Source of the DNA: Minisyncoccota bacterium
GTDB taxonomy: Bacteria > Patescibacteriota > Minisyncoccia > Phycocordibacterales > Phycocordibacteraceae
Assembly: GCA_018062765.1 (NCBI GenBank)
Contig: JAGORR010000001.1
Location: 78,638-142,637, forward strand
Direction of reading: 5' to 3'
Length of the DNA: 64,000 nucleotides
Shown here: positions 1-49,059 of the stretch, one piece after another
Numbering within the stretch: position 1 is the stretch's first letter
Layout: each line of letters opens with the position of its first letter
Program-made: the position numbers and the translations under genes
Notes under the pieces: model-generated
Databases searched by the model: none
What the model was told of the DNA's origin: nothing
What the model saw: the letters and a program-made list of their open reading frames with translations, nothing else

Positions 1-424
1 TTTCTGCAGCAAGGTACGTGAATAGATTCCCGCTCGCACGCATCGCATATCGCACCTCGAGGTTCGAAAGCTGATCAGATGTCTCGAGGCTCGTCGTTGC
101 TGTGTCTGTCCGGCGCAATGCAACCGCTCCTTCGGCAACTGGCCCAGGAGTGATTTTCACGAGGCGGGGAGCAACATCCGTAGCGGTACCTCCCTCTCCA
201 GCGTCTTCGCCCCATCCGATTGTCCCCTCTTCAGGGTCGTCCCCTCCCCAGTCATCAACACCGCCACCGCCACCGGTTTCACCATCCCCTACTGGCTCGA
301 ACGGATTCGTGACGCCAGGTTCTGCAACGAGGCCGTCGTCGCCAGGTACTAGGTAGAAATAGAGCGCGACAGCGATCCCAACGAGGACGATGACGACGGC
401 GAGTATGGGAAGAAATTTACGCAT
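1..424 (-). CDS. Partial CDS whose 3' part lies beyond the left edge. N-terminal TM anchor followed by a Gly/Asp/Glu-rich low-complexity region. Most distal gene seen of the minus-strand T4SS-like operon.
   Basis: ATG at 424-422 on the minus strand, 4 nt after the stop of the upstream ORF. The frame stays open to position 1 and is absent from the ORF track because there is no stop in the window. Plus-strand ORF 102-356 is its antisense shadow. Confidence 0.45.
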   Translation of the reverse strand, partial: MRKFLPILAVVIVLVGIAVALYFYLVPGDDGLVAEPGVTNPFEPVGDGETGGGGGVDDWGGDDPEEGTIGWGEDAGEGGTATDVAPRLVKITPGPVAEGAVALRRTDTATTSLETSDQLSNLEVRYAMRASGNLFTYLAAE

Positions 425-427
425 AGG

Positions 428-1447
428 CTATTGGTCTCGGGACGAACGGCACCACTTATCGTCTTCGAAGTAGTTGCAGATCCGTGTGCGCTCTGGAGGA
501 AGAGGATTGAGGTCCATGTCGAGCGCTGAGTCGTGTCCTCCGCCTTGGCAGGAATCGTCTATCCCGTAAGCAAAAAGCGTACTCGGGCAAAGGCCGAATT
601 CGGCAAAGCCGCCGCAGAAGTCTTGCTGCTTTTCCTCGCTCAAGCCGACTTTCGCGTATCCGTACGAGGAGAGCTTACTGCACTCGGAAATGAGCGTCGC
701 ATTCTTTTGGCTATCAGTAACGTTGGATACTCGTATCGTCGGATTATTGTCCTGATAGAAGAATCCGTCGAAATCCATGTAGAGGCCGAAACCGGTCTCG
801 AGCCTGCACACGGCGAGTACCCCGTTTGCAACTACGTGGTGGTCGAACTCGTAATCGCCTTCGGAACATCGCTGGCTCCGGAACTCCTCGAGTTTCGCCG
901 AGAGGCTCGCATCGTCGGATGCAGGGAAGAGTTTCGCTCGTACGTAAACGCCATTAGGAATCAAATCTATCCCCTCAGGAGGAACGGGCGGGCCTTCATC
1001 TGTGCGATCGGAAAAATCAGGCTGCAGCTCCTCAAGACTCCCTTCGCATTCCGCGTTTCCAGTAAGACTCAGCGAGAGAATGCACGGGTTGATGATATTG
1101 AAGACGATGACTGGGGACAGGACCAATACGAGTCCCATGATGGCTACCGTAATGAGGTGGCGCGCCTGGCTCTTTTCCGTGAAGCTGTCCGTAAGCATCC
1201 ACAGAATGCCGCCGCGTACTATCTGCAGCACCGCAAGCACCACCGCAATGCCTATGACGAGCGTGTAGACCGTATTAAGGAACATTGGCAGATTGTCCTG
1301 CTCTTCGGCAAGCGCGCCGAACGGCCCGTCCTTCTCGGTAAGTAGAACGAAATCACCAGCTGCATCCTGTGCGGACGCCGCAAGAGGCAGCATGAAGGCG
1401 CCAAGGGCGAGGAGTGCGCGCGAAAGCATCTTCATAAGGTATCTCAT
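428..1447 (-). CDS. Exported membrane protein with T4SS-pilin-like (VirB2/TrbC-like) topology plus a Cys-rich C-terminal domain of about 220 aa.
   Basis: Signal peptide (MLSRALLALGAFMLPLAASAQDA), then two hydrophobic helices within the first ~120 aa, then about ten Cys. ATGA overlap with the upstream gene. Confidence 0.4.
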   Translation of the reverse strand: MRYLMKMLSRALLALGAFMLPLAASAQDAAGDFVLLTEKDGPFGALAEEQDNLPMFLNTVYTLVIGIAVVLAVLQIVRGGILWMLTDSFTEKSQARHLITVAIMGLVLVLSPVIVFNIINPCILSLSLTGNAECEGSLEELQPDFSDRTDEGPPVPPEGIDLIPNGVYVRAKLFPASDDASLSAKLEEFRSQRCSEGDYEFDHHVVANGVLAVCRLETGFGLYMDFDGFFYQDNNPTIRVSNVTDSQKNATLISECSKLSSYGYAKVGLSEEKQQDFCGGFAEFGLCPSTLFAYGIDDSCQGGGHDSALDMDLNPLPPERTRICNYFEDDKWCRSSRDQ

Positions 1448-2469
1448 AGGCCGAAGAATCCTGAATCAGGACTTGAGCCGTACCGGATACTCGCCTTCGC
1501 GTCGGCACTGTAGTATTCTCCCGCCTGCCGCGCATTTACCGAAAGTGCAGCTACGCCAGCCTCGCTCCCCGTCGTGCGCACGGTAATAGAGTCCTCCTGA
1601 CCGACTTCACTCGACCCCAACTTCCAGGTAAGCGTTGGACGACTCGAAAAAAAGTATGGAACGACCCGGAATGCTTCTTCGGTCTCTTTTAGGTCGTATG
1701 TGCCAGTAACTGCGCGCAAGAAACGAGGGCCTTCAAGTGGTCCGTCCTTATAGATGCGCACCAAGGGCTCGGTTGGCGCGATGCGCACGCTCGCTTCCCC
1801 GACGATAGCGCCGTCCCGACTCGAAACGGTCAGTGATACGCTCGCGTCACGGAACAGGACGGGAGCTGTTGCGGTGAGTACCGATTTCCCGAGCCCTGAA
1901 TCCGCGGTGAGGATGCGCCCGCCGGACTTCCAGGTATAGATAAGATCAGAGGATGCGATACGGGACCCGGGTGACGTCCGCAAGTCCGCAAGTGCAACGA
2001 CGCGCACCCGGCCCTCAGGAGCGACGAGCGCTCCACCCTGATAGAACGCGTGGGACGTGGAGATTGCGTCTATAACTAAAGAAACATCGGCGGGTCGTAT
2101 GGTGAGTTCCTCCGTGTAGACGCCGTCGGGCGCCGTCACCGTTACCTTCACTGGTACGCTCGTACCTATTGCGCCGATAGGAATCTGGTAGCTTTCCCGA
2201 CCGGAACCGCGACCGACCTCCTTCCCCGCCGCGACAACTACCACCGTGCTGCCCGAAAGATCGACTAACGTACTTTGTGGTGTGAGCGTAACGGTCTCGT
2301 ATGGGCGCGGGTAGCGCGGCGAGAGGGTTACGGTAAGCGGATCGACGCCGCTCATCGATTGCGAGGCAGCGAAAACCGGCACGAGCAGGATGAGGAGTGT
2401 GAGAAACCCTCGTATCATCGAGATAAGTATACCGTAGGCGTCAGTAGTTACGCTGCTTGCTGCGCCCAT
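1444..2469 (-). CDS. Secreted hypothetical protein of the T4SS-like cluster.
   Basis: Long ORF with an N-terminal hydrophobic signal (FLTLLILLVPVFAASQS). Translationally coupled to its neighbours. Confidence 0.5.
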   Translation of the reverse strand: MGAASSVTTDAYGILISMIRGFLTLLILLVPVFAASQSMSGVDPLTVTLSPRYPRPYETVTLTPQSTLVDLSGSTVVVVAAGKEVGRGSGRESYQIPIGAIGTSVPVKVTVTAPDGVYTEELTIRPADVSLVIDAISTSHAFYQGGALVAPEGRVRVVALADLRTSPGSRIASSDLIYTWKSGGRILTADSGLGKSVLTATAPVLFRDASVSLTVSSRDGAIVGEASVRIAPTEPLVRIYKDGPLEGPRFLRAVTGTYDLKETEEAFRVVPYFFSSRPTLTWKLGSSEVGQEDSITVRTTGSEAGVAALSVNARQAGEYYSADAKASIRYGSSPDSGFFGL

Positions 2470-3023
2470 TCCTCGTTATCGTTTGCCGCCGCATCCCTCG
2501 CTATGCTCGCCTCTTCGGCAGCAAGCCACCTGTCATATTTCTTACGGGCTTCCCTGTCGTCGCTACGGACGGTCTGTGTTATCGCCCAAATGCTCATTGT
2601 CGACCATGGTAATACGTTCACATACGGAAGGAATTCGAGAATGCTATTGCCAGCCATGATGAATATGCGTGCCCCCATCTTATCGAGGAAGCCGACACCT
2701 ATAAGACGGAACCATGCGATAAAGACCAGTATCGATATAGCGCTTAGAGCCGCACCGATAATCCAGCCAAGCATTGCGATGCCCACTCCCACTCCCACCG
2801 AGTAGGACGCCACTAACGAGAGACTTGAGACGTAGCAGGCGACGTCTCCAGCCCACACACTCCCTGCCCAACCCTCGACCCAATATTTCGCAAAATAACA
2901 GATCAGTAGGGGCGCAAACACTACCATCAGGGCCCCTATAGTCTGAAGCATTTCAAACGTTAAAGCTACCGCGATCATCCGTATCTGACGGCCGCGCGGC
3001 ATCTTTGGTTCTGGTTTATTCAT
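2448..3023 (-). CDS. Polytopic membrane protein (about 4 TM) of the T4SS-like cluster.
   Basis: ORF with four hydrophobic segments. Its ATG overlaps the stop of the VirB4-like gene (ATGA). Confidence 0.5.
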   Translation of the reverse strand: MNKPEPKMPRGRQIRMIAVALTFEMLQTIGALMVVFAPLLICYFAKYWVEGWAGSVWAGDVACYVSSLSLVASYSVGVGVGIAMLGWIIGAALSAISILVFIAWFRLIGVGFLDKMGARIFIMAGNSILEFLPYVNVLPWSTMSIWAITQTVRSDDREARKKYDRWLAAEEASIARDAAANDNEEWAQQAA

Positions 3024-4852
3024 GGACGGCGGTCCTGGTCCGCTTCAGCAGCGAGCCGTTGTTTTTCCCGTTTGATTGAAAGAATCTGAGAAGGGTCCGA
3101 GGTGATTATCTGGTCCTCCGTGTATGAGGCGACAACCTTGATGGCAACATGCTTGAGGCCAGCAAAGAATAGCCCGTCCCCCACCCCAGCCTCTAGTAGG
3201 AGGAATTTTTCCTGGTCAGTAAGGTTGAATGTTTGCTTCAGGAGATCAATCGTCGTTGGCGACTGCTTCAAAAGAAGCTGCATGGAAGAGTTTGTGAGTA
3301 TCGGGCGCCCATATGGTGAGCGGAGGAAGTCCTCGACGTCCTGGGTAACGGTTGCGAGCCCTAAATAGTATTTACGACCGCGCTTGGCGAGACTGTAGAG
3401 GAATGACGCGGTGTCATCCGATTTCATCATCCACCAAGCCTCGTCGATGACGAGAAGACGCTTTCTCAGCTCGCGCCGTACGGCGTTCCAGATGTAGTGC
3501 GTAATGATATACATCGCAACCGGTTTCAGTTCATCCTCCATATCACGCACCGAGAAGACGATGAACTGCTTATTGATATCGATATTCGTCGGCTGATTCA
3601 GGAAGCCGGCCCAAGTACCCTTTGTGTATTTCGACAGACGCGTCACGAGGGATTCGCTTCCCTCCATCCCGGAGAGTACTGATTCGAAATCCGATAGGAG
3701 CGGTGCGTCCATCCCAGTGAAGTCGCGATTCCCGGTGATGTCCTTAAGGGCATAGGTTTCCGTAATAGCGCGATCGATGATGGCGTCCTCCTCCGGCGTG
3801 AGTCCCCCGAGCATGATGCGGAAGAGACCGACGAGGTTGATGATGACCGAACGCAATATGTCGTTTGGCTCCTCCCCTTCCCGCACGGGCGGAAGATCGA
3901 AAGGATTGATGTGATGCTCCGAGGAAAGCGAGATGTTGAAAAGGCGGCCGCCTGTTGCCTCCGCAAGGTATTCGTACTCGCGCTCAGGGTCGATGACGAT
4001 GACTTCTGTATCGAACATAAGCGAACGGAGAATTTCGAGCTTCACTGCGTAGGATTTTCCGGAGCCCGACTTCGCGAATACGACCGAGTTGTAGTTCTCT
4101 AGAGAGAATCGGTCGAAGAGGACGAGGGATGAGTTGTGGCGGTTGATGCCGTAGAGGATGCCCTTATCGGAGGTGAGGTCGTAGGAGACGAACGGGAATA
4201 GAGAAGAGAGAGGTGAGGTATTGAGTTTCGAATGGACGCCTAGCTCGTCGAGCTCCAGGGGAAGCGTTGAGCGGAAGCCCTGCTCCTGCTGGAATATCGC
4301 AGGCTTTGTGTATACGAGTTTAGCGTCGAGGATACCTCGTAATTTTCCTTCAAGATTATCGAGCTCGTCCTTACTGTCTGCGTAAATGGTTAGGTACAGT
4401 CCGACCTCAAACAAGCGCTCCTGTGCCTGCTGCAGCTGGTCCCGTAGACGCTCCAGGTCCTGGTATGAGGTATCGAGCATTGGGTCGCGCACAAGACCTT
4501 TTTGCGCGCGGTCGGCCTGCTGGCTCTCCACTTCCGCGACTTTCTTCTGGAACTGGCGAAGGATCTGGCCCGTCTCTATGGGGTGGATGAAGATGCCGAC
4601 ATCGAATACTTGGTCCAAATTAATAACCGGGGAAAACCAGTCGTCGGACAAAAACCGCGGATACGAGATGGTGTAAAAGGAGCGCGCAAACTTGGCGCCA
4701 AGCTCCAATTCCCTGCCGGTGACCTTGAGTGCTGCTGGCGCGATAGTGTCCGCCAGGTCTAAGGCTCCCTCTGCATAGATATCCTTAGGAAGCACAGACG
4801 CGATGTCTGGCGCCTCTTCTTTCTTACGGTTAAGGAAATCGAGGAGTGCCAT
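3020..4852 (-). CDS. virB4: VirB4/TrbE/PrgJ-family T4SS ATPase, C-terminal ATPase portion.
   Basis: Walker A (VVFAKSGSGKSYAV), VirB4-type Walker B (LVIDEAWWMM) and a DPEREY motif. The ORF-track start at 4894 (TTG) would translate the upstream heptamer repeat (LYAARCHLYA). Start is placed at the ATG at 4852 (MALLDFL...). Confidence 0.8.
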   Translation of the reverse strand: MALLDFLNRKKEEAPDIASVLPKDIYAEGALDLADTIAPAALKVTGRELELGAKFARSFYTISYPRFLSDDWFSPVINLDQVFDVGIFIHPIETGQILRQFQKKVAEVESQQADRAQKGLVRDPMLDTSYQDLERLRDQLQQAQERLFEVGLYLTIYADSKDELDNLEGKLRGILDAKLVYTKPAIFQQEQGFRSTLPLELDELGVHSKLNTSPLSSLFPFVSYDLTSDKGILYGINRHNSSLVLFDRFSLENYNSVVFAKSGSGKSYAVKLEILRSLMFDTEVIVIDPEREYEYLAEATGGRLFNISLSSEHHINPFDLPPVREGEEPNDILRSVIINLVGLFRIMLGGLTPEEDAIIDRAITETYALKDITGNRDFTGMDAPLLSDFESVLSGMEGSESLVTRLSKYTKGTWAGFLNQPTNIDINKQFIVFSVRDMEDELKPVAMYIITHYIWNAVRRELRKRLLVIDEAWWMMKSDDTASFLYSLAKRGRKYYLGLATVTQDVEDFLRSPYGRPILTNSSMQLLLKQSPTTIDLLKQTFNLTDQEKFLLLEAGVGDGLFFAGLKHVAIKVVASYTEDQIITSDPSQILSIKREKQRLAAEADQDRRP

Positions 4853-4858
4853 ACTAGA

Positions 4859-4893
4859 AGTAGCGTACAGGTGACAGCGTGCAGCGTACAGCA
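4859..4893. repeat. Tandem heptamer array, 5 units: AGTAGCG TACAGGT GACAGCG TGCAGCG TACAGCA. On the gene's sense strand this reads CTGTACG CTGCACG CTGTCAC CTGTACG.
   Basis: Read directly from the sequence. It ends 7 nt upstream of the virB4 C-part ATG. Confidence 0.7.
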
Positions 4894-4920
4894 AAAGCGG
4901 TGCAGGAGTGTTCAGTCTGG

Positions 4921-4941
4921 ACGCTAGCCGCTAGACGCTTC
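4921..4941. repeat. Tandem heptamer array, 3 units: ACGCTAG CCGCTAG ACGCTTC. It is in inverted orientation relative to the 4859-4893 array.
   Basis: Read directly from the sequence. It lies immediately after the stop of the VirB4 N-part ORF. Confidence 0.6.
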
Positions 4942-4944
4942 ATA

Positions 4945-5577
4945 TCATTTTGTAAGCCTTATCGGGCTATCGAGCTCGCCGATGTTGAATGAGCGGTAGA
5001 GAAGCTCGATGATTTCCTCAGTGCCTAGGGGTACTGCGCGAATACCGGCCGAGTTTATGGCGCCTGCAGCCAGGGACATGCGCTGCTCGAGCTGGATGCG
5101 ATGCTCAGCGAATGCGTCGTTCCCTTCCCCGCCAGACCCGGATGACGGAGTGCGCTGGAGGAACGCGAGCGCACTCTTCACTTCCGAACCCGAGCCAGGT
5201 GCCAAAGGAACGACGATGTAGAATGTCTTCGTCATGATGTTTGCTTGATCAGCGAACGCGCGGACGAATTCCATGTATTCGCGTACCTGTATCTTCATGA
5301 GCTCGGTTTCCTGCTTATCTGTGCGCTCCTGAAGGAGTGCTAGGTACGGCCGGATATCCATGCGGCGGGAGTGCACAACAAGCTCCACGGAAAAATCGAG
5401 CGAATTGAGGAAGGTCTGGAATCCGCCGATGACCGCCCGCTGCTCGTCGTCGGATTTCAAGGAGAAGTTCACTGATGAGCACATGAGTATGCCCCGATAC
5501 GTGCCGTCCTTAAGGATGATGACCCCATTACGGACCTCCTTTACTGGAACAAACGACTGAGATGCTTTAGGCGCCAT
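4945..5577 (-). CDS. virB4: VirB4/TrbE N-terminal domain (CagE_TrbE_VirB-like), encoded as a separate ORF.
   Basis: The motif run VPVKEVRNGVIILKDGTYRGILMCSSVNFSLKSDDEQRAV...LNSLDFSVELVV matches the conserved N-terminal region of VirB4/TrbE proteins. It lies directly upstream of the ATPase part, in a different frame. Confidence 0.6.
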   Translation of the reverse strand: MAPKASQSFVPVKEVRNGVIILKDGTYRGILMCSSVNFSLKSDDEQRAVIGGFQTFLNSLDFSVELVVHSRRMDIRPYLALLQERTDKQETELMKIQVREYMEFVRAFADQANIMTKTFYIVVPLAPGSGSEVKSALAFLQRTPSSGSGGEGNDAFAEHRIQLEQRMSLAAGAINSAGIRAVPLGTEEIIELLYRSFNIGELDSPIRLTK

Positions 5578-5986
5578 GGTTTTCTTCCTGCGTGCGGTCC
5601 TTTATATCGAGGGACCATGCTAGGTCCCGAATCTTCGAGGACGACAGCCCGAGCTTCTGGCGGGCTTCTTCTGGGGCGACGACAGCTTTGGGTGCTTCTT
5701 GCGCCTTATCCTCCTTACGCCATACGTAGAGTTTCCCGCCAAACAGGTACGACACCTGTGCCTCGACAATCTCAACGAACGGCTTGTTGTTGACGCGATA
5801 GAACGCGAGGGCGCCAGAGAGTGCGCCGACGGGAAGTGCCACGATGAGGAACCCAATCATGGGAAGGTAGGCAAACGCGATGACGCAGATACCGATGCCT
5901 CCGGCAAGGTATATGAACTGCTTCAGCGTGAATGGTCCAAATATCTTCCCTTCCACTTCGAGAAACTGCGGTACTTGGTACTCCAT
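5567..5986 (-). CDS. PrgI/VirB3-like small T4SS membrane protein.
   Basis: N-terminus MEYQVPQFLEVEGKIFGPFTLKQFIYLAGGIG fits the PrgI-family pattern (VP..L....K.FG.T.KQ), followed by a TM hairpin. It sits in the canonical position upstream of virB4. Confidence 0.55.
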   Translation of the reverse strand: MEYQVPQFLEVEGKIFGPFTLKQFIYLAGGIGICVIAFAYLPMIGFLIVALPVGALSGALAFYRVNNKPFVEIVEAQVSYLFGGKLYVWRKEDKAQEAPKAVVAPEEARQKLGLSSSKIRDLAWSLDIKDRTQEENHGA

Positions 5987-6026
5987 CGCTCTATAGTATA
6001 CCGCCCGAGCGCCGAGTTTTGCGTGG

Positions 6027-6635
6027 TTATTGTGACGTACCCTCGTCTATGGGTTCACGATACGGGTCGCGAGCATAATTTTTTGGTACAGGAGCCGGAA
6101 GTGGCGCGATAGACGCAGGTGTTGTGACTTCACGCTCTGTTCGAGGGAGGCGGGGCTCGAAGACTGCTGGAGGTGTCACCGGCTCAGGGCGCGGCGCGGG
6201 AGGAGCAACAGGAGCAGAAGTTATCACAGGTGCAAGCGGCGCGGCTGGAGCGATTGGAGCAGTGGGTGGAGGAGTGGTGCCAAGAGGTGCAGGCACGTCG
6301 GTGAGTGGCGCGCGCGCAGGCTTCCCGGCCTCGCTCCGCATCTTCTCGTGGAGGGGCTTGAATATCGCGTCATTAAGTTCCTTGGCGATGAGAGAGGCTT
6401 TCAGATTAGATATGCCCATCTGCTCCATCTCCTGTATGAGCTGTGCAGGATTGATGAATCCGGACAACATAAGTCCAATGGACTCATCCAAGTCGCCTAC
6501 GACGTCTATGTGTAACTGGTACTTTGCACCTATGCGGCGCACTGCTGGCCCTAATTCACCGCTCGCGAGGTACTCACGAACAGAAAGAGGAAGACCGCGA
6601 TATGCCCGCAAAAGTTCTTCGTGTGGAATCTTCAT
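6027..6635 (-). CDS. Hypothetical protein with a Pro-rich C-terminal half (T4SS-like cluster).
   Basis: ORF with no TM segment. The C-terminal 90 aa are PAPxP-rich. Confidence 0.45.
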   Translation of the reverse strand: MKIPHEELLRAYRGLPLSVREYLASGELGPAVRRIGAKYQLHIDVVGDLDESIGLMLSGFINPAQLIQEMEQMGISNLKASLIAKELNDAIFKPLHEKMRSEAGKPARAPLTDVPAPLGTTPPPTAPIAPAAPLAPVITSAPVAPPAPRPEPVTPPAVFEPRLPRTEREVTTPASIAPLPAPVPKNYARDPYREPIDEGTSQ

Positions 6636-6641
6636 AGAGAG

Positions 6642-8933
6642 CTATAGTCCTGCAAAATCTTTCGGAAGCCCGAACAGACCGCGATCGAAATCATTACTCG
6701 TAAGATAATTATTGATACCTTCTATTTGCTTGGCGGAAAGTACGCCCGCAGCCTTACCTCGTCGAAGTTCAGCGATAACTTCCGCAGGGTCTGAGAACTT
6801 ACCCTCCGCCATACCTCGTTGCAAGTCGACTTGCGTGAAAGAATGCACGACAGCAGGTCGGGTATAGTCTTTAGCGCTTAGTTTGACCTTTGCCTTAGGC
6901 CCAAGACCGCTCGCCTGAGTCCTGATATTCACCTGTGATGCGGCTGATCCGTCGTCTTTCTCTATTAAGACGCGTAATTTACCAAAGTCCGATGAGTCCT
7001 TAACTGCGCGGCGTTGGTCATTGGTCAAGGCCTCACTCTTTTCAAGTGCCTCCAACTGTTCGTCGGAGAATTGGCCAGCAGCAAGCGCGTCTTCGAATGT
7101 CGCCGCGTTAAGCTTCGCAAACTCTGCCATATCCTTTGATGACCAGCGTTGTACCTCCTTCTTATCGTTTGTACCAATGGCCGCCACGAGTTTTTGGAAT
7201 CGCCCGCCTGCAACTTCGTCCTTAACGCTCTGATCGACCTTGTCGGTCTTCTGAATGTCGATGAACCGTTCAGTGCTGAGGTATTTCGCCGCCTCCTGTT
7301 TATCTGCATTTTTGAGTCTTTTGACGTACTCGAACGTGTCTCCCTGGTTCAGGCTCTGCAGGGTCTTCGAATACTCTTTCTCGGCTAGCATCCGCTTTGC
7401 ATCATCAGGCGCATCTTTTATGCTCTTAAGCTGCGTGCCAAGAGTGCTGAACGTGTGATCGCGATGAACTTCATGCGCGCGATGGTCACGCGCATGTTTC
7501 TCGTCATCCAGAGAAACACCAGCTACTTTTATTTTCTCGCGCTTATCGAGCGCGGATTGGATATTGGCGTCCGTCGTCGCAAGTATCTTGCTTCCTCTAA
7601 ACGCGGCGCCTATGCCAAGGCCATTATATGCCTTATCTGCCGCCCACATTCCAGCCTTCGCGCCATACCTAAGCCCCGTATTCCCTATCGCACGAGAAGG
7701 TTTTGATATTGGAGAGAGCGCTGCGCCGGTAAGACGTCGGCTCATGCCGATGGAGAAGCTCGCGCCGACCGCACCCATCTGTTTGGCGACAATGATGGAC
7801 GCCATAAGCATTCCCATGGAGATAACGAAGCCGAGTATCATTCGGGTCGTATTGGCCCAACCGGTGCCGCTGACGAGCGCGCTGAAATCGCGACTCTGTC
7901 CGATGATGAGCTGCGGCGAGGTCATCAGCGTCACACTGATGAGGAGGAACAGGAGGACAATAGGAGCAGTCGCGCTTTGGGCGATGAGCATGTGCCACCA
8001 CTGCTTCGCGCGCCCCTCTAGGGATGGTATGACCAGTCCAACGAAGCCGAGAGGGGACAGGATCATGAGGAATATGAGTACGAGGAAGCGCGCGATGAGC
8101 ATAAACGCGAGCGCAAGCATTACGAACGTAGCGACGATGAACAGGAGCGAGCCTAGTATGAGCGCAGCGAACCAGTTGTTCTCCAGCACCGTATTCTTAA
8201 GCTGCCCCGTCTGAAGCGTAGTTGCATCATAGAAATTCTGAAGTCCGACCATCTCCATAATGGCGTTCGAGACGCCCTCATTAGATGGCGACCAGCTTTC
8301 CCCCGGATCCGCGCCGAGCGCTTGCCTGCCCTCTCCGGGCTTCACCATGACGGAGTAGAACTGATAGGCGAACACGTTGCCAACGTCGATGATGGCGCGT
8401 GCAGCGAAGAGGCTGAAATTCACGGTAACGGCGACCAGGATGAGCTTCACGAGCATCTTCTTCGCGTTGTAACTCTGTACGTCGAGTATCGTCGCGACGC
8501 CGATAGCGACGAATCCGAATATGAGCGCAATGTTACCAAGATCGCGTAGCACCCTCCATGCATCGAGTATGCCGGGCATGCTATTCACGAAATCCCCCAT
8601 CTTAACGACTGTGTAGTAGACGGACGCGTTAAGCATCACGCCGGCGACTCCGGCGAGGTACGCGAACAGGGATAGCATCTTATACCCTATGGGTCCGTAG
8701 ATATCGTCTCCGGTCGTATGACTTCCAAAATTAGCGTTCGCGTCAGGGGTCCCTGCTTGCGGGGCAGCAGGAGGAGGACGATCCGGAAGCGTCAGATCAG
8801 GGGGCGAGTCCGGGGTCACTTCAGGAGGTGGAGGTGTCTGGGCAAATGCGAGACTAGGAAGCAGGAGCGAAAGCGAAAGCAGCAGGATGATACCTGCAGC
8901 CAGCCATGTCCTACCTGATACTCGGGAAGCCAT
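6642..8933 (-). CDS. Polytopic membrane protein, VirB6/TrbL/PrgH-like by topology and position.
   Basis: Signal peptide, at least 6 TM helices in the N-terminal 400 aa, and a large hydrophilic C-terminal domain. It lies upstream of the PrgI-like and VirB4 genes. Confidence 0.45.
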   Translation of the reverse strand: MASRVSGRTWLAAGIILLLSLSLLLPSLAFAQTPPPPEVTPDSPPDLTLPDRPPPAAPQAGTPDANANFGSHTTGDDIYGPIGYKMLSLFAYLAGVAGVMLNASVYYTVVKMGDFVNSMPGILDAWRVLRDLGNIALIFGFVAIGVATILDVQSYNAKKMLVKLILVAVTVNFSLFAARAIIDVGNVFAYQFYSVMVKPGEGRQALGADPGESWSPSNEGVSNAIMEMVGLQNFYDATTLQTGQLKNTVLENNWFAALILGSLLFIVATFVMLALAFMLIARFLVLIFLMILSPLGFVGLVIPSLEGRAKQWWHMLIAQSATAPIVLLFLLISVTLMTSPQLIIGQSRDFSALVSGTGWANTTRMILGFVISMGMLMASIIVAKQMGAVGASFSIGMSRRLTGAALSPISKPSRAIGNTGLRYGAKAGMWAADKAYNGLGIGAAFRGSKILATTDANIQSALDKREKIKVAGVSLDDEKHARDHRAHEVHRDHTFSTLGTQLKSIKDAPDDAKRMLAEKEYSKTLQSLNQGDTFEYVKRLKNADKQEAAKYLSTERFIDIQKTDKVDQSVKDEVAGGRFQKLVAAIGTNDKKEVQRWSSKDMAEFAKLNAATFEDALAAGQFSDEQLEALEKSEALTNDQRRAVKDSSDFGKLRVLIEKDDGSAASQVNIRTQASGLGPKAKVKLSAKDYTRPAVVHSFTQVDLQRGMAEGKFSDPAEVIAELRRGKAAGVLSAKQIEGINNYLTSNDFDRGLFGLPKDFAGL

Positions 8934-8938
8934 ATCGG

Positions 8939-10390
8939 TTAGCTTGTCGGGGTGCAGCGCAGGGAGGAGGTGCGCAGTTCCATATATAAGGAGGCTGGCG
9001 TGCCCTCTTCAGCTGCAAGTACCCCTGCTTCAGCAACCTCTGTGACAGAAGGGGTCGCAGGATTTGTCATGAGTGCTTGGAAGTCCTGGGCGACCGTTGC
9101 GACAGCGGTGGGATTCGCGCTCGTACGTGCCTCTAGGATTTCTGTGGTGATTGCCTGTAGCGCAGCGAGCGAGACGCCGACGCGCGCGAGTGCTGCATCC
9201 GCACGTGCTTTTGCGTCCGTTGCGCGCGCCTTCTCCTCATCCGTAGATTCATCGCAAGTAAGCGTTGACGATGCTACCGCCTCTATTTTCTGCCAATCCG
9301 TCTGATACGAAGCAAGGAGGGTTACTTGTCCCTGGATACCGCTTACAAGAAGCTCGTCGACAGATCCCCCGATAGGCGTTGTGGGAGGGGTGACCGGTGT
9401 CGGCGTCCCCGGTCTGTCTATATATCCTGAGCCGCCAGAGGATCGTGAGCCAATAGAAGAAAGTCCCTGAAGCGCCTGGCTTACAAGTTGGCTAACGAGC
9501 GCGTTCACGATCTCGTTTATCTCGTCAGCGACCTGGAGGCGCTGCTGCCCACCTGCCAAGGTCTCATTGAGCTGTTTTTCGATGACGGAACCTGGCGTCT
9601 CGATGGGGGCGTCGGCGCAGAATTCTTCCCCACCCAGATTGACCGCCGGCACAGGCGCGTTAATGCGGCCATCAGCGCCTGTTGTTGTCTGTCGGTCCCT
9701 GCACTCGCCGCGCCAAGACAGAAATCCGTTACCCCATCCGAGCTCCGTTATCCGCTTGTTAAGAGACGCTTCGATGCGGCGATTGAGCTCTTCTTTGGCA
9801 TTTAGATATGCGCCATGTGGGTTGTTTGCGCGATCTCCCGTGAGTGCGAACCACCCGTCCCAGCCGCCTTCGCTAAACCGACCGCGAGTGAACTCAAGAT
9901 CGTTCTCCACAGTGTCGCGAAGGGTGTACAGCTGCTCACGAAGGAACGCGTCGCCATTAGTCGAAAGGTAGTATCCGTACGCAACCGCCTCGACGGTACC
10001 CGAGAGCGGCGTGTCCATCATCTGATCGGCGAGCTGCCCGATGAATTCTGCGGCTACCGCGTCAGCGACCCCGCGCAGGTTCTGATTAAGGTCCTGGACG
10101 AAAGCCGGAGAGCCCTCGAAACCAGAGTTTATCCAATTGACGACGCTCCGCGACATCGACTCAAGGACGGTGTTCGCAAGCTGCCAAGCGACGCCGTCGA
10201 GGACCTGGTCGATATTGAGTTCTGCAGCATTTGTACCGAGAATGGCGTTTGTCGTTGCAAGGACTGCTTTATCGAGAACGAGCTGAACACCAAATTGTGC
10301 TTCAGCGCGTTGCGGTATTGCAAAGAGCGGCAGGATGAGCGCCAGCGTGAGCGCGGATGCGGTAGAACGATACAGGAGTGTACGCATCAT
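8939..10390 (-). CDS. Secreted hypothetical protein (T4SS-like cluster).
   Basis: Signal peptide ending in the AEAQF motif. A 483-aa ORF that overlaps its upstream neighbour by 4 nt. Confidence 0.5.
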   Translation of the reverse strand: MMRTLLYRSTASALTLALILPLFAIPQRAEAQFGVQLVLDKAVLATTNAILGTNAAELNIDQVLDGVAWQLANTVLESMSRSVVNWINSGFEGSPAFVQDLNQNLRGVADAVAAEFIGQLADQMMDTPLSGTVEAVAYGYYLSTNGDAFLREQLYTLRDTVENDLEFTRGRFSEGGWDGWFALTGDRANNPHGAYLNAKEELNRRIEASLNKRITELGWGNGFLSWRGECRDRQTTTGADGRINAPVPAVNLGGEEFCADAPIETPGSVIEKQLNETLAGGQQRLQVADEINEIVNALVSQLVSQALQGLSSIGSRSSGGSGYIDRPGTPTPVTPPTTPIGGSVDELLVSGIQGQVTLLASYQTDWQKIEAVASSTLTCDESTDEEKARATDAKARADAALARVGVSLAALQAITTEILEARTSANPTAVATVAQDFQALMTNPATPSVTEVAEAGVLAAEEGTPASLYMELRTSSLRCTPTS

Positions 10391-11364
10391 AGGCTGGTTG
10401 CAGAAAGGAGTGCGTAGAACCCGGCGCCGGCACCCGTTCGCGCAGCACCCGTTGCGTCGTACGCTTTCTTCACGGCTTTGAAGCCATCGATCATGCTGCG
10501 CGCATCCTTCTCATAATTTCCAAACCCAATCATCGCGCGCACAGGATCATCAGTGAGTGAAGCCATGTCCCCAATCGTCGCTCCGAGCCGTGCGATTGCG
10601 TTCGTAAGTGACTGATGTGCGCTCGTAAGTGCTATTGGCGCAGCGACCCCTCGGAGGCCTTCTGCTATCGCAACGTAATGGTCTCCTATCCGCTTTACCT
10701 GTGCGAGCGCATTCGTATCGCTCTTGAGCACTGCGTCGCTGAAATACGTAAGCTCGCTTTCCGGGAGCGAGAGCGCGTTCTTGGCAAATGCCTGCTCAGC
10801 CCCTGCAAGGTATGAGCTAGGGGTCGCTCCCTCGCTCGCTACGAAGTCGGCAACGACGTATGCGTCATCACGCGTCGCTTCGCGGCGGATTTCGTCAACC
10901 GCGCTTACGACGAACGAGCGCAGTGCCTCAGCGGTGAGTTTCTCCCCTCCCCCGGTAGTGACGTACGTCTCGAAGAACGTGAGCGCGAATTTCTCGGTGA
11001 GGGAACCTGGTGCCGGAGTTACCCCTGGCATGCTTGCGATGATGTCGCTTCCTATAGTGCCTTCGGGCGCCTCAATCGTGGGGCGCACGAGGCCCTGGGC
11101 AAGCGCCTCGCTATCCTTGATGTCGCTCCGTACCGAAGTAGCGTCCTCCGGGTCCATCCCATACAGGAGCTCCTGCCAGTCTGGAACGCCATCGGCATCC
11201 GTATCCTTCGCGGCGTATTCTTTAAGCACCTCCTCGGTCTCCTCTGCAGATAGCGTTGGCGTTGGTGGAGCGCCGTTTTGTATGTAGTAGGCGCCTCCGA
11301 TGAGCACAATCGCGATGAGCGATGCTCCTCCTACTATCCAGTGCGTTCGTGTGACAGCAATCAC
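10387..11364 (-). CDS. Membrane-anchored protein with an EF-hand-like Ca-binding loop. First gene of the T4SS-like operon.
   Basis: N-terminal TM segment (IVGGASLIAIVLIGGAYYI) and a DTDADGVPDWQE loop. Confidence 0.5.
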   Translation of the reverse strand: MIAVTRTHWIVGGASLIAIVLIGGAYYIQNGAPPTPTLSAEETEEVLKEYAAKDTDADGVPDWQELLYGMDPEDATSVRSDIKDSEALAQGLVRPTIEAPEGTIGSDIIASMPGVTPAPGSLTEKFALTFFETYVTTGGGEKLTAEALRSFVVSAVDEIRREATRDDAYVVADFVASEGATPSSYLAGAEQAFAKNALSLPESELTYFSDAVLKSDTNALAQVKRIGDHYVAIAEGLRGVAAPIALTSAHQSLTNAIARLGATIGDMASLTDDPVRAMIGFGNYEKDARSMIDGFKAVKKAYDATGAARTGAGAGFYALLSATSL

Positions 11365-11420
11365 GGCAGTTTCGCATTAATAGTATCACCGAAATCTCAC
11401 CATCCCCCCGAGAGCGGTGG

Positions 11421-12218
11421 CTACCGTTGTGAACTGCTTGCCGAATCGGTGAGCGCGCGAGCAAGATTCTTCCACGTATCGATGGAAAGCTCCTCGGCGC
11501 GGGCGTTTGGAGATATGGAAAGTGCAGTAAATGCTTGTAAGACGCTATCGGGTGGCAGGAGATCCTCGAGATTCTTTGCAAGCCTTTTGCGTTTATGTGC
11601 GAACCCGGTCCGCAAGACTTCAAAGAACGCCTTTTCTTCCTGAAGCGAGGCAAAGGGGCTCCTGATGTCCTTGATGTGGAGTACTGCGGAGTCAATGTTC
11701 GGTGCCGGAAGAAACGCGCCGCGCGGTACGGTGAAAAGATAGGAGGGCTCTCCGAAGGCGCGCACGGCGATTGAGAGAATGCTTCCCTTTTTGTCTCGGG
11801 CGACGCGCTCTGCGACCTCTTTCTGTACCAGGATGGTTACCGAAGCTGGCTTCGCTTGGGCTGAGAGGAATGTGCGGATAATCTCACCGGTGAGGTAGTA
11901 CGGAATATTGGCGACCAGGTGGTAGCGGTCATGGAGCGCGCTTGGTCCGAATTCTCGGATATCCGCATTGATGAGCTCGAGCCGTCGACCTTTGATTTCC
12001 CCGGCAAAACGCTCCGCGAGCGCCGGGATGAGCTCGCGATCTGCCTCGACCGCGATAACCTTCTTGGCGCGCGCCAAAAGCGGCGCGGTCAGCATGCCGG
12101 TCCCGGGACCTATCTCAAGTACGACATCATCCGCTCCTACGCCGGACTCGATAGCGATATGCTCCGCTATCTTCGCGTGCATGAGAAAGTTCTGCCCGAG
12201 TGATTTCTTAGCTTGCAT
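11421..12218 (-). CDS. rsmA: 16S rRNA (adenine1518/1519-N6) dimethyltransferase RsmA/KsgA.
   Basis: KKSLGQNFL N-terminus and LEIGPGTGMLT SAM motif. The start is trimmed from the ORF-track 12344 to the ATG at 12218. Confidence 0.85.
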   Translation of the reverse strand: MQAKKSLGQNFLMHAKIAEHIAIESGVGADDVVLEIGPGTGMLTAPLLARAKKVIAVEADRELIPALAERFAGEIKGRRLELINADIREFGPSALHDRYHLVANIPYYLTGEIIRTFLSAQAKPASVTILVQKEVAERVARDKKGSILSIAVRAFGEPSYLFTVPRGAFLPAPNIDSAVLHIKDIRSPFASLQEEKAFFEVLRTGFAHKRKRLAKNLEDLLPPDSVLQAFTALSISPNARAEELSIDTWKNLARALTDSASSSQR

Positions 12219-12222
12219 ACGG

Positions 12223-14157
12223 TTAGTGTATCTGCGGCAGACCATCATGTTCGCCAATCTCCGCGACAGTGAGCGAAGGATCGATTTCCGATAGGAATTG
12301 CGACGGCTCCGAAAGGAAGTCCGTTCCATAGATACGGCGTACATGTGCGAGCGTGAGGATCAGGGTCTTTCGTGCGCGCGTCATGGCAACGTAGAAGAGG
12401 CGGCGCTCCTCCTCCTCATCGCGATCGTTATCATCGCCACCCTCATGCGGAAACAATCCCTGCTCGAGCCCTGAGACGTAGACGGTATCGAATTCGAGTC
12501 CCTTAGCCGCGTGCACCGTCATCAGAGTGACGCCGTTCTTCTTTACTTCCTCGCGCGGCCTATCGATCTCGTCCTGGTCGCCTGAGAGCGCCGCGTCTGC
12601 GAGGAATGCGCATATCCCTTCTTCGCCTGGGGTTGCGTCGAACCGGCTTGCGAAGGTCGCAAGCTCCTTCGCGTTCTCAATGCGCTCTTCGCCTTCCTCC
12701 CCGCCTTTCTCTAAGGAACTCATGAGACCGCTTTTCTCGATGACGAGCTTTACGAAAGCAGAGGGAGCAAGTTCTTTTGACGCCCTGTGGAGCGTTTCGA
12801 TGAGGGCATCAAACGCAGCGATTTTCGTGCGATCCGCGGCACGTAACTCCGCAGTTTTTCCGGCCATGATCTTCCCTACCGTAGTCTTTCCGATGCCGCG
12901 TGCAGGCGCCTGCATAGCGCGGAGCCGGTCAGACTCGCGTGTGGGGTCAAGCGCGGCGCGCATCCACGCGACCGCGTCTTTAATCTCCTTGCGGTCGAAG
13001 AAGCGGATGCCCAATAGTCGGTACGGTACGCCGTAGCGCAGGAACGCTTCCTCTAGGGCACGTGACTGGAAATTCGTCCGATATAGAACGGCGATGCTTT
13101 CCGGCTCATCCCCGCGTAGGACGCGTTTCTTCGTGTCGGATGCTATCCACGCAGCCTCGCCCTCAGCGTTCGCGGCGAGGTGTATGTGTATCGGCTCTCC
13201 GTCGTCGTTCGTCGTAACCGAACGCTTCTCCTTGCGATTCCGGTTCTTCTCGATGACCTGGTTTGCAGCTGCAACGATGGTTCCCGTCGAGCGGTAGTTT
13301 TCTTCAAGGATGACGGTTTTCGCGTCGGGATACGTGCGATCAAATTCAAGGAGGTTCTCGATAGTAGCGCCACGCCAGGTGTAGATGGTCTGATCGATAT
13401 CGCCGACCACAAACAGGTTGCGGTGCTTGCCCGAAAGCAGGTTCGCGAGCCTTCCCTGGAGTTCGTTGGTGTCCTGGTACTCGTCGATATGCACGTGCGA
13501 GAAGCGCGACTGCATCGCGTCGAGCGCTTCAGGGTGTTCTTCTAGGAGGCGAAGTGGAAGCAGAATCAGGTCATCGAAATCGAGCGCCTTTGCTTCCTTC
13601 AAGGAGCGCTCGTACTTAAGCCATGCTTCCGCGACGATGCGCGTCCGGAAGCTTTCGCGTGCATGGCGCGCATGGAACTCATCCGAACGCATTCCTGCCC
13701 CCTTTGCTTTACTGATACGCCCGAGAACGGTGCGCGGCGGCACCTCCTTGGGGTCAACATCAAGCGCCTTCAAGGCCTCCTTTATCGCACGTTCGGAATC
13801 ATCGCGATCGAATATAGAAAAGTAGCGGGGAACGCCGATAAAGCGCCCATGGGTCTCAAGTATCTCGCGTCCGAGTCCGTGGAAAGTCGCAATGAATGGA
13901 AGGTCTCGTCTGCGGCGGGTGTCGCCGGTCTCTCCGAGAAGCGTGGCGAGCCGTTCACGCATCTCACGGGCTGCCTTATTGGTGAATGTTACGGCGAGGA
14001 TTTTCTCAGGAGGCGTCCCTTCGCGGATGAGGTGGTAGATGCGACTCGTGAGTACCCGGGTTTTCCCTGAGCCTGCCCCTGCGAGTACCGAGATAGGGCC
14101 TTGGGTCGTAAGCACAGCCTCCTTTTGTCTTTCATTGAGGCCGTGGAGGTACTCCAT
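12223..14157 (-). CDS. uvrD: UvrD/PcrA-family DNA helicase.
   Basis: N-terminal LNERQKEAV...AGAGSGKTRVLT Walker A and the full helicase motifs. Confidence 0.9.
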   Translation of the reverse strand: MEYLHGLNERQKEAVLTTQGPISVLAGAGSGKTRVLTSRIYHLIREGTPPEKILAVTFTNKAAREMRERLATLLGETGDTRRRRDLPFIATFHGLGREILETHGRFIGVPRYFSIFDRDDSERAIKEALKALDVDPKEVPPRTVLGRISKAKGAGMRSDEFHARHARESFRTRIVAEAWLKYERSLKEAKALDFDDLILLPLRLLEEHPEALDAMQSRFSHVHIDEYQDTNELQGRLANLLSGKHRNLFVVGDIDQTIYTWRGATIENLLEFDRTYPDAKTVILEENYRSTGTIVAAANQVIEKNRNRKEKRSVTTNDDGEPIHIHLAANAEGEAAWIASDTKKRVLRGDEPESIAVLYRTNFQSRALEEAFLRYGVPYRLLGIRFFDRKEIKDAVAWMRAALDPTRESDRLRAMQAPARGIGKTTVGKIMAGKTAELRAADRTKIAAFDALIETLHRASKELAPSAFVKLVIEKSGLMSSLEKGGEEGEERIENAKELATFASRFDATPGEEGICAFLADAALSGDQDEIDRPREEVKKNGVTLMTVHAAKGLEFDTVYVSGLEQGLFPHEGGDDNDRDEEEERRLFYVAMTRARKTLILTLAHVRRIYGTDFLSEPSQFLSEIDPSLTVAEIGEHDGLPQIH

Positions 14158-14475
14158 ATAAGGAGTATAGCCAAAAACGGCCTTATTACTACGTTTTTTC
14201 GCTTTCTTGCCTGTAATACCCTGCAGATATGCGGTTTCTCTAGCTTTTCAACAGGGCTCCTTTCACTACATTGACCTCATATTCTCTTCACGGTACCCTA
14301 GTCAGGTTGGTTGCTACGGATGCACGAAAAGATACGGCTTAGGTAAGCCATATCCTGAACACGGAAGGTACGGAAGACATTCCCGAAACACCCTATCGCC
14401 TTTGATTTACAGACCTCCGAGTCTACCGCTTCGGCGGAGAATCGGAATACATACCTTGTTCTGGGTGCTATCCCT

Positions 14476-15537: not shown

Positions 15538-15566
15538 AAAAGCCCCGGGCTGCGGGGCTTTTTTAT
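15538..15566. terminator. Bidirectional rho-independent terminator (AGCCCCGGGCTGCGGGGCT followed by a T-run).
   Basis: GC-rich hairpin flanked by an A-run and a T-run, between the convergent peptidase and comM genes. Confidence 0.6.
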
Positions 15567-45283: not shown

Positions 45284-45284
45284 T

Positions 45285-46502: not shown

Positions 46503-46660
46503 TGGTGCGCTTAAAAAACGGGAACCTGCTTCGTTGCAGGCGCCCGTCGATGTTCTCCACCGTATAGTCCATACGTTTCCGAACATCGCCTGCCCGCGCC
46601 TCGCATCTTCCTCGTTTTTTAAACGCACCGGAAGGCGCAACAGGTATTCATGGTTAAGGG

Positions 46661-49058: not shown

Positions 49059-49059
49059 T

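Follow-up and report, generated by a model that had tools for sequence, protein, structure and literature searches.

Patescibacteria, which are ultra-small and host-dependent, account for a large share of bacterial diversity and are unable to synthesize nucleotides, amino acids or lipids. Here, we describe a locus of a Minisyncoccota bacterium that is, with near certainty, the chromosomal type IV secretion system (T4SS) cluster already described for the Patescibacteria; it lies in a stretch of 64,000 nucleotides (nt), analyzed as a whole and hereafter called the window (GenBank assembly GCA_018062765.1, contig JAGORR010000001.1, positions 78,638 to 142,637 of the forward strand). A survey of these systems revealed that VirB4 proteins from across the phylum form a monophyletic clade, the sister group of MPF-FATA, and that they are accompanied by TrsD, PrgI/VirB3, VirB6 and VirB2-like pilins (Quinonero-Coronel et al., 2025; PMC12102498). 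A relaxase is usually absent from these loci and a nearby coupling protein is rare; in Paceibacteria, the cluster adjoins dnaA, dnaN, rnpA and ksgA (PMC12102498).

Genetic work on Southlakia has shown, by transposon sequencing, that the locus SEML1_0006-0019, with its pilins, is indispensable when the cells grow on their host (Wang et al., 2023; PMC10633639). Southlakia comEC, in turn, is dispensable for growth and needed for competence, so that the essential role of the T4SS is not natural transformation (PMC12857230). Tubular structures, possibly T4SS pili, have been described at a parasite-host interface, along with the acquisition of host RNA, in a 2026 preprint (bioRxiv 10.64898/2026.06.21.733656). 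The locus studied here has features that accompany VirB4 in the Patescibacteria clade: a TrsD-like gene beside virB4, PrgI/VirB3 and VirB6 near it, a VirB2-like pilin, and the dnaA/dnaN/rnpA/ksgA neighborhood with no relaxase nearby. The category itself is thus known; what is new is a collinear split of VirB4, a fold-level assignment of VirB6, a set of conserved accessory genes and a variable, disulfide-rich tail on the pilin.

The operon and its core translocon

The locus is an 11-gene operon situated between rsmA and the yidC-rnpA/dnaA origin region. Window positions 1-11364 hold, on the minus strand, 10 complete open reading frames (ORFs) and an 11th, which begins at 424 and is cut by the left edge. 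The junctions measure, in operon order, -4, 5, 6, 40, -11, 92, -4, -22, -4 and 3 nt, and this tight spacing marks a packed, co-directional operon, in agreement with an earlier note on this DNA made from the sequence alone. The left flank was read on contig JAGOQO010000006.1 of GCA_017991435.1, which carries an identical 339-residue protein and extends the sequence leftward. The gene at the edge is complete at 422 codons and the operon ends 845 nt left of the window edge; the operon does continue past that edge, as had been proposed, by this one gene alone. A convergent yidC-rnpA pair directly abuts the last gene and is followed by dnaA, about 2.2 kb from the operon, and dnaN, beyond which lie genes for a class A penicillin-binding protein, ruvC, yebC and ruvB. 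At the other end, rsmA/ksgA is the same-strand neighbor, 56 nt upstream of the operon, and is itself preceded by the gene for the PcrA/UvrD helicase. The GC content of the operon is even with that of the remainder of the window, no integrase or tRNA was found at its borders, and all 11 ORFs are intact. Scans for promoters and terminators (window positions 1-14600 and the left flank) were also tried as a way of placing the boundaries and were set aside: promoters fell below shuffle expectation and terminator-like sites were at most about two standard deviations above it.

The operon encodes a cytoplasmic-membrane translocon, consisting of PrgI/VirB3, an extended VirB6 and a VirB4 ATPase whose N-terminal domain is a separate polypeptide, plus one VirB2-type pilin:

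6642..8933, minus strand: extended VirB6-like polytopic membrane protein, 763 residues (AlphaFold fold match)
5567..5986, minus strand: PrgI/VirB3-family small membrane protein, 139 residues (PF12666, PrgI)
4945..5577, minus strand: detached VirB4 N-terminal domain, 210 residues, TrsD/TraC-like, soluble (profiles, BLASTP)
3020..4894, minus strand: VirB4 ATPase, the C-terminal two thirds of canonical VirB4 (profile, PDB, motifs)
428..1447, minus strand: VirB2-like T4SS pilin, 339 residues (T4SS_pilin, TrbC, orthologue scan)

The ATPase ORF is 624 codons long as called. A start at MALLDF is conserved among orthologues, and the true start is likely to be Met15, at nt 4852, for a product of 610 residues. 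The protein matches the NCBIfam model NF045971 (VirB4-like conjugal transfer ATPase, CD1110 family) over profile positions 184-733 with 371.6 bits, above the cutoff of 325, as well as P-loop_TraG of Pfam (PF19044; E 1.3e-25), and has a Walker A (AKSGSGKS, residues 274-281) and a Walker B motif (LLVIDE, residues 480-485). The closest solved structures are Thermoanaerobacter VirB4 (4ag5; E 9.5e-45) and TrwK of R388 (E 3e-10). The adjacent 210-residue ORF matches the missing N-terminal part of NF045971 (positions 5-136), positions 103-233 of NF045975 and, in precomputed annotation, the TraC-like family PF26593; its match to TrsD (NF041427; E 2e-4, 21 bits) is far under the family cutoff of 200. 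A search of PDB with phmmer did not return VirB4 among the matches of the 210-residue protein. In a single-chain VirB4 of 783 residues from a Clostridium perfringens plasmid, residues 20-193 align with residues 3-201 of the small ORF (BLASTP, E 4e-5) and residues 203-754 with the ATPase ORF (33% identity over 560 residues). The two ORFs are collinear on the NCBIfam and PHROG profiles just as they are on the plasmid VirB4. Thus, VirB4 is split into two polypeptides.

The division is found in 79 of 80 related loci (described below; numbered L001 onward), and a stop codon always lies between the two parts. Five loci (L007, L009, L012, L020 and L031) seemed at first to carry "fused" ORFs of 818-824 codons; this was rejected, as in every one of them a single in-frame stop separates the N-domain gene from MALLDF. 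The two parts share a reading frame in these loci, with the single stop and one or two codons before MALLDF (about 10019-10030 in L007). Since five in-frame pairs out of about 77 are no more than chance would give, no read-through is claimed. One PHROG family, phrog_2666, annotated as "terminase large subunit", matches the N-domain (profile positions 6-90) and the ATPase (138-366) collinearly within window positions 3020-5577, which suggests that phrog_2666 may really be a family of VirB4-like ATPases.

The PrgI ORF is identified by PF12666 (31.7 bits, above the gathering threshold of 27; E 2.3e-7); it has a transmembrane (TM) hairpin at about residues 21-51 and overlaps the next gene by 11 nt. 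The VirB6-like protein is formed by a signal peptide, a Pro-rich stretch, about six TM helices (residues ~75-405), a basic, disordered linker and a helical-repeat C-terminal domain (residues 475-763), the last predicted confidently in the AlphaFold model. The protein alone had no match in Pfam, and a PDB profile search with its family gave only coiled-coil and GPCR (G protein-coupled receptor) noise. The assignment rests on the fold: the best match of the AlphaFold model is TrwI/VirB6 of R388, and the protein is predicted to be a VirB6 at that level. The gene order, VirB6-like, a gene for a 202-residue protein, PrgI, VirB4 N-domain and VirB4 ATPase, bears out the monoderm-type, T4SS-like operon in PrgH/PrgI/PrgJ order that the earlier note had recognized, with VirB4 and PrgI now identified by profile and the VirB6-like protein by fold.

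A pilin with a variable tail

The 339-residue protein has a signal peptide, with cleavage near ASA-QD, TM helices at residues 59-77 and 98-116, and a Cys-rich C-terminal extension of 214 residues. Its own match to T4SS_pilin (PF18895) is just below threshold (25.2 bits against 26.6), and TrbC is matched with an E value of 0.025. Its positional orthologues are more telling: 44 of 49 match T4SS_pilin (E 3e-11) and 17 of 49 match TrbC/VirB2, in line with the pilin topology and Cys-rich extension noticed earlier. Conservation among the 49 orthologues covers the signal peptide, an FVPLxxIPG motif and the core of two helices, where the median pairwise identity is 38.5%. Beyond the second helix begins the tail, which can hardly be aligned (median identity 16%) and is anywhere between 5 and 296 residues long; its number of Cys residues is even in 45 of 49 proteins, giving it the look of a disulfide-bonded extracellular domain. 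The topology of VirB2 places the C-terminus outside the cell. The tail is plausibly an exposed, fast-evolving domain that serves in host recognition.

Conservation across related genomes

The 80 related loci are those with the best VirB4 matches (70-86% identity) among at least 579 confirmed VirB4 relatives in a species-level genome collection. Nearly all come from metagenome-assembled genomes labeled Paceibacteria/Paceibacterota, Kaiserbacteria, Nomurabacteria, Campbellbacteria, Parcubacteria or Patescibacteria. When all window proteins were searched against these loci with tblastn, the conserved order was pcrA, rsmA, the genes for the 325- and 483-residue proteins, VirB6, the 202-residue protein, PrgI, VirB4 N-domain, VirB4, a small TM protein, an Ig-like protein, the pilin and a propeller protein, followed, where contigs are long enough, by convergent yidC-rnpA and then dnaA. 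VirB4 was found in 80 of 80 loci (median identity 75%), its N-domain in 79 (55%), PrgI in 76 (48%), the Ig-like protein in 76 (33%), the propeller in 65 (30%), the pilin in 51 (42%) and VirB6 in 49 (29%); DnaA was found in 58 of the same loci, with a median identity of 55%. By comparison, the nearest plasmid VirB4 proteins, all from monoderms (Actinobacteria or Firmicutes), are only 30-36% identical.

Search for conjugation and other core components

VirB7, VirB9, VirB10, VirD4 and a relaxase were not found among the operon proteins, the other window ORFs of at least 450 codons or the called genes of the 10 kb to the left, which agrees with what had been read from the sequence before. Those other ORFs code for PcrA, ComM, a CCA-adding enzyme, RNase Y, NusA, PilB, RecJ and ComEC, and for three further proteins that had no informative match and none of which resembles a type IV coupling protein (T4CP). 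The earlier note had pointed to the DNA left of the window as the place to look for VirD4, a relaxase or oriT; those 10 kb hold yidC, rnpA, dnaA and dnaN instead, and no VirD4, relaxase, integrase or oriT context. A tblastn search of the window and 82 loci (2.27 Mb) with the clostridial plasmid relaxase, MobC, DUF3801, VirD4 (CD1115), PrgI and SLT proteins as queries recovered only VirB4, a weak negative given that the sensitivity was low enough for even PrgI to be missed. Among the operon proteins, Pfam and NCBIfam scans gave no match to SLT (searched for by tblastn as well), CHAP, lysozyme or NTF2 families, and in the NCBIfam scan the scores were 36 bits for CedB (cutoff 700) and 15 bits for CedD (cutoff 600).

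A gene at 14476-15522 on the plus strand, 3 kb upstream of the operon and divergent from pcrA, codes for a secreted protein that combines two LysM domains with one of Peptidase_M23. LysM/M23 proteins, considered VirB1-like, are associated with virB4 in Paceibacteria (PMC12102498), and the protein found here could be the missing cell-wall hydrolase.

Accessory and envelope proteins

The remaining six proteins of the operon, of 325, 483, 202, 191, 341 and 422 residues, belong to no T4SS family:

10387..11364, minus strand: first operon gene, 325 residues, TM anchor and TSP3-type repeat (TSP3_bac in orthologues)
8939..10390, minus strand: secreted all-alpha protein, 483 residues, signal peptide ending AEA-Q (signal peptide, AlphaFold)
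6027..6635, minus strand: 202-residue protein with no signal peptide or TM segment (TM prediction; no family)
2448..3023, minus strand: small polytopic membrane protein, 191 residues, about three or four TM segments (TM prediction)
1444..2469, minus strand: Ig-like beta-sandwich protein, tandem domains, exported or N-terminally anchored, 341 residues (orthologue scan, PDB profile)
1..424, minus strand: last operon gene, 422 residues in full, its first 141 codons in the window (TolB profile matches)

Single-sequence scans of the 763-, 483-, 341-, 325-, 202- and 191-residue proteins against Pfam and NCBIfam were empty or gave noise, and family-wide scans and structure prediction were therefore needed. 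With these, several of the components that the earlier note had counted as lacking a recognizable family proved assignable at the level of fold or domain. Likewise, of the five secreted or membrane hypotheticals then counted, the product of 4945-5577 is the VirB4 N-domain and that of 6027-6635 is without a signal peptide or TM segment.

The 325-residue protein has a TM segment at residues 10-28 and, at about residues 52-70, a Ca-binding repeat of the TSP3 type (DxDxDGxxDWxE), followed by a C-terminal domain of unassigned fold. TSP3_bac (PF18884) was found in 18 of 26 orthologues (best E 2.8e-10), and a PDB profile search returned the Ca-binding repeat of Bap (E 6e-4). The gene holds the same position in 26 of the 80 related loci (tblastn, E 1e-5) and codes for a lineage-specific accessory protein. 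The 202-residue protein is helical in its N-terminal half, Pro-rich in its C-terminal half and weakly conserved; it was recovered at the same position, with the same search, in 24 of 80 loci, and Pfam, NCBIfam and PHROGs scans gave no family match.

The gene for the 483-residue protein is directly upstream of the VirB6 gene. All of its 263 homologues are unnamed Paceibacteria-type proteins, and the AlphaFold model is all helical, with a pLDDT (predicted local distance difference test) score of 68 and low confidence in the conserved N-terminal part. DUF4141 (PF13605) was detected in 13 of 69 homologues (best E 1.6e-9), over some 35 N-terminal residues around the end of the signal peptide; it was not matched in the window protein itself, and the remainder of the protein has no detected relative. 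In Agrobacterium, VirB5 is encoded upstream of virB6. The 483-residue protein was accordingly considered as a VirB5 analogue, on the grounds of its position, its helical nature and its DUF4141-like N-terminus, and this was not retained: Foldseek against PDB returned only generic helical bundles (E of at least 0.38), and two PDB profile searches failed to find VirB5, TraC or TrwJ, a weak negative given the low-confidence model. The protein is a candidate stalk or tip component, for which its position is the one hint.

The Ig-like gene is the best conserved of the accessory genes. Its product has one N-terminal hydrophobic segment, and its orthologues match BiPBP_C (17 of 66) and Cadherin-like (7 of 66) families; a PDB profile search matched the Ig-like domains of Hoc (E 2.9e-4). 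The last gene of the operon, complete in L001 (11024-12292), codes for a protein that is anchored by an N-terminal TM segment and continues through a linker rich in Gly and Asp into a TolB-like beta-propeller; a PDB profile search gave matches to 12 TolB chains (best E 2e-4), and PD40 was found in 2 of 63 orthologues. The gene for the small polytopic protein, finally, had tblastn sequence matches in only 4 of 80 loci, its position being kept while its sequence diverges fast: in about 50 of 70 loci, virB4 is separated from the gene after it by an ORF of 110-290 codons with 2-5 TM segments. In about 17 of the 70 (e.g., L056, L065, L071, L080 and L082) this gene is absent and virB4 abuts or overlaps the Ig-like gene, so that these genomes either do without the component or have it at another place.

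Other features of the window

Several further features were recorded in the window. A type IV pilus cluster occupies 43478-50589 on the plus strand and codes for PilB (601 residues), PilC (405 residues), a 576-residue protein with a weak CarboxypepD_reg match, a 228-residue protein in which an N-methylation motif is weakly recognizable and a 509-residue protein of no family. Adjoining it, at 42354-43331 on the minus strand, is a gene for a 325-residue protein made mostly of RTX (HemolysinCabind) nonapeptide repeats, unusual for a monoderm with a tiny genome. ComEC is split: an ORF at 55893-57371 (plus strand) carries the DUF4131 and Competence domains, and one at 58282-59133 (plus strand), about 900 nt downstream, the metallo-beta-lactamase domain. 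Near the T4SS operon, positions 15563-17173 (minus strand) code for a Mg-chelatase-like AAA ATPase of the ComM/YifB type. Positions 18183-19901 (minus strand) code for a 572-residue protein with extreme proline content (long PPPAP runs) and no family match; the latter region has the highest GC content (0.60) and GC skew (0.149) of the window. Two adjacent paralogues at 30985-32391 and 32513-33679 (plus strand) each combine PG_binding_1 with a DUF4398-like helical region, and GC and AT skew are unusually high in the block at 32-34 kb.

Discussion

Taken as a whole, the observations are, in all probability, best explained by a Patescibacteria T4SS that works through a pilus and contact with the host. 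The model of pilus and host contact is likely, and we are less sure of it than of the identity of the system. In this model, drawn from R388 structures and from models, VirB4 hexamers would dock on PrgI(VirB3)/VirB6 with the N-domain supplied in trans, and VirB4 would pull the Sec-inserted pilin from the membrane to assemble a pilus, or a short tube, that crosses the envelope of the monoderm cell. The Ig-like protein, the propeller protein and the species-variable, disulfide-bonded domain at the C-terminus of the pilin would face outward and touch the host cell. By extension from Southlakia genetics, the apparatus would support host-dependent growth through macromolecule transfer, whether nucleic acid or protein of the host is imported or effectors are exported. 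The reading of the earlier note, which allowed for an apparatus of cell contact or uptake, is supported, and the gene arrangement is that of the system published for the whole Patescibacteria lineage (PMC12102498; PMC10633639). The apparatus is probably not a conjugation machine, because no relaxase, coupling protein or mobile-element context was found in the window or in the 10 kb to its left.

Two narrower readings, both live, are sub-cases of this model. If proteins were injected into the host, or released onto it, for nutrients, the pilus would serve only for attachment; we hold this to be a serious candidate and, on balance, unlikely. The lack of a relaxase and a coupling protein is a trait that Wang et al. 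(2023) took to speak for protein export and against DNA transport (PMC10633639), Bordetella Ptl and Brucella VirB are T4SSs that secrete proteins with no T4CP, and both the secreted 483-residue protein, which is helical, and the variable tail of the pilin could be products of such export. However, no effector with a recognizable toxic or enzymatic domain is encoded in or beside the operon, and the secreted proteins have Sec signal peptides, so that they do not need a T4SS to leave the cytoplasm. A ComB- or Ced-like T4SS could instead take in nucleic acid from the host or the environment and pass it to ComEC for entry into the cytoplasm, feeding a cell unable to make nucleotides, which strikes us as rather improbable. 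The split ComEC, ComM, RecJ and the type IV pilus cluster are in the same window, the 2025 survey proposes the import of DNA or other macromolecules (PMC12102498), and a cultivated relative is reported to take up host RNA, with VirB4 linked to macromolecule transfer (bioRxiv 10.64898/2026.06.21.733656). Yet in Southlakia the T4SS is essential and comEC is not, so that the essential role does not run through ComEC; the competence genes are 40-50 kb away here and unlinked to the operon in other genomes, and no ComB or Ced component beyond the VirB4-type ATPase was matched, the CedB and CedD scores being weak and far below their cutoffs.

Two other readings would take the locus out of the Patescibacteria T4SS altogether. 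It is very improbable that an integrated conjugative element near the origin gave the operon, either as its transfer module or as what decay has left of it: VirB4 does belong to the CD1110 family used by such elements and by plasmids of Firmicutes, and PrgI precedes VirB4 as in C. perfringens pSXP-169_2, but the relaxase, MobC, T4CP and SLT hydrolase that all flank the clostridial homologue were not found in the scans described above. Moreover, there is no integrase or tRNA at the borders, the chromosomal neighbors are identical in dozens of species, the 11 ORFs are intact, and VirB4 is 70-86% identical to its counterparts in the lineage, with no plasmid copy exceeding 36%. That the operon is part of a prophage or of a phage-tail-like particle is scarcely credible. 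The "terminase large subunit" label of phrog_2666, which matches both VirB4 ORFs, would speak for it, but the family is collinear with the N- and C-terminal parts of VirB4 and is most simply taken as one of VirB4-like ATPases; the other eight proteins match no PHROG, the neighbors are housekeeping genes, and PHROGs gives no sign of the prophage tail that the earlier note had named as an alternative.

Several points weigh against the preferred reading of a Patescibacteria T4SS with a host-contact pilus, or limit it. As the scans covered the window and 10 kb to its left, a T4CP or relaxase may be encoded elsewhere in the genome, and VirD4 homologues do lie far from virB4 in many Patescibacteria (PMC12102498). 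No VirB8-like protein was identified, structures having been predicted for two proteins only, and the operon contains no peptidoglycan hydrolase. The placement of VirB4 in the Patescibacteria clade is not based on a tree; it is drawn from sequence similarity and gene order, which are consistent with membership, the best curated family being the MPF-FATA-type CD1110. The VirB4 ATPase appears to be under constraint no weaker than that on the replication initiator DnaA, in a set of loci picked by VirB4 similarity, which biases the comparison toward VirB4. A domain of 214 residues on each pilin subunit may be hard to fit into the canonical helical polymer of VirB2; alternatively, the tail may be cleaved off, or the protein may be a membrane-anchored adhesin. 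Lastly, the genetic evidence for the role of the T4SS comes from Southlakia.

A bolder reading, which we think unlikely and put forward as speculation, is that of a conserved, 11-gene organelle of host contact, which would go beyond a reduced core of monoderm conjugation. In it, a hypervariable, disulfide-bonded receptor-binding domain on the pilin would set host specificity, the TSP3 protein, the DUF4141-like secreted protein, the Ig-like protein and the TolB-like propeller would form a lineage-specific envelope module around it, nucleic acid or other macromolecules of the host would be imported, and the VirB4 N-domain would be a regulated adaptor and no mere accident of gene splitting. If true, much of the bacterial tree would feed through a tube of this kind. 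The T4SS is, at any rate, one of the few machines shown, in Southlakia, to be essential for a host-dependent lifestyle. The window offers a clean and complete Paceibacteria example, with a fixed gene order, exact boundaries and a VirB4 seemingly as conserved as DnaA. It also offers experimental handles: the VirB4 split, the VirB6 fold with its helical-repeat domain, conserved envelope proteins left unannotated in published surveys, and a pilin tail with the look of a host-recognition domain.

Comparison with known systems

The systems of Helicobacter pylori (ComB) and of archaea (Ced) also combine a VirB4-type ATPase with the absence of a relaxase and serve uptake, not conjugation. The analogy is functional alone: ComB retains VirB7, VirB9 and VirB10 in a diderm host, whereas here neither the ComB nor the Ced set was matched. 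Relative to the MPF-T systems, R388 Trw and Agrobacterium VirB, the locus has no VirB7/9/10 core, no VirB11, no recognizable VirB8 and no demonstrable VirB5, while its VirB6 has a C-terminal domain of 290 residues and its pilin a large extra domain.

With the MPF-FATA systems (PrgH-PrgI-PrgJ of pCF10, CD1110 of C. difficile CTn2, C. perfringens pSXP-169_2) the locus shares a VirB4 of the CD1110 family that scores above cutoff, PrgI immediately upstream of VirB4, and the absence of the VirB7/9/10 outer-membrane core. A clostridial conjugative locus of this kind contains MobC, a relaxase, DUF3801, VirD4, two small proteins, PrgI, a single-chain VirB4 and a large SLT hydrolase. Of these, MobC, the relaxase, VirD4 and the SLT hydrolase, which stand beside virB4 in MPF-FATA conjugative loci, were all four not found here, and VirB4 is split; conversely, a VirB2-type pilin is present here and not in MPF-FATA, and the locus is a fixed chromosomal feature, in contrast to the mobile MPF-FATA loci. 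Two genes have counterparts in other conjugative elements. TrsD of the staphylococcal plasmid pGO1 is likewise a free-standing homologue of the VirB4 N-terminus encoded beside virB4, although the profile score is 21 bits against a cutoff of 200. In Bacteroides conjugative transposons, the gene for the DUF4141 protein is beside traJ (VirB6) and traG (VirB4), and the gene for the 483-residue protein is likewise beside VirB6.

The closest likeness is to Southlakia epibionticum ML1 (SEML1_0005-0019), where the core order, VirB6-like, PrgI, TrsD-like and VirB4 (about 610 residues), is the same. Shared as well are a VirB6 whose C-terminal extension is helical or ARM-like, PF18895 pilins, an exported Ig-like protein, a location near the start of the chromosome (dnaA) and the absence of a relaxase or coupling protein from the locus. 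Southlakia has a lysozyme/peptidase gene within the operon, whereas here there is none and the LysM-M23 gene is 3 kb off, on the other strand; it also has an NTF2-like (VirB8-like) protein, of which none was seen here. It has two VirB6 proteins and an array of six short pilins, in contrast to the single VirB6 and the single pilin, with a long, variable, Cys-rich tail, of the operon described here. To this operon and not to that of Southlakia belong the TolB-like propeller, the TSP3 protein and the DUF4141-like secreted protein, all of them encoded by conserved genes.

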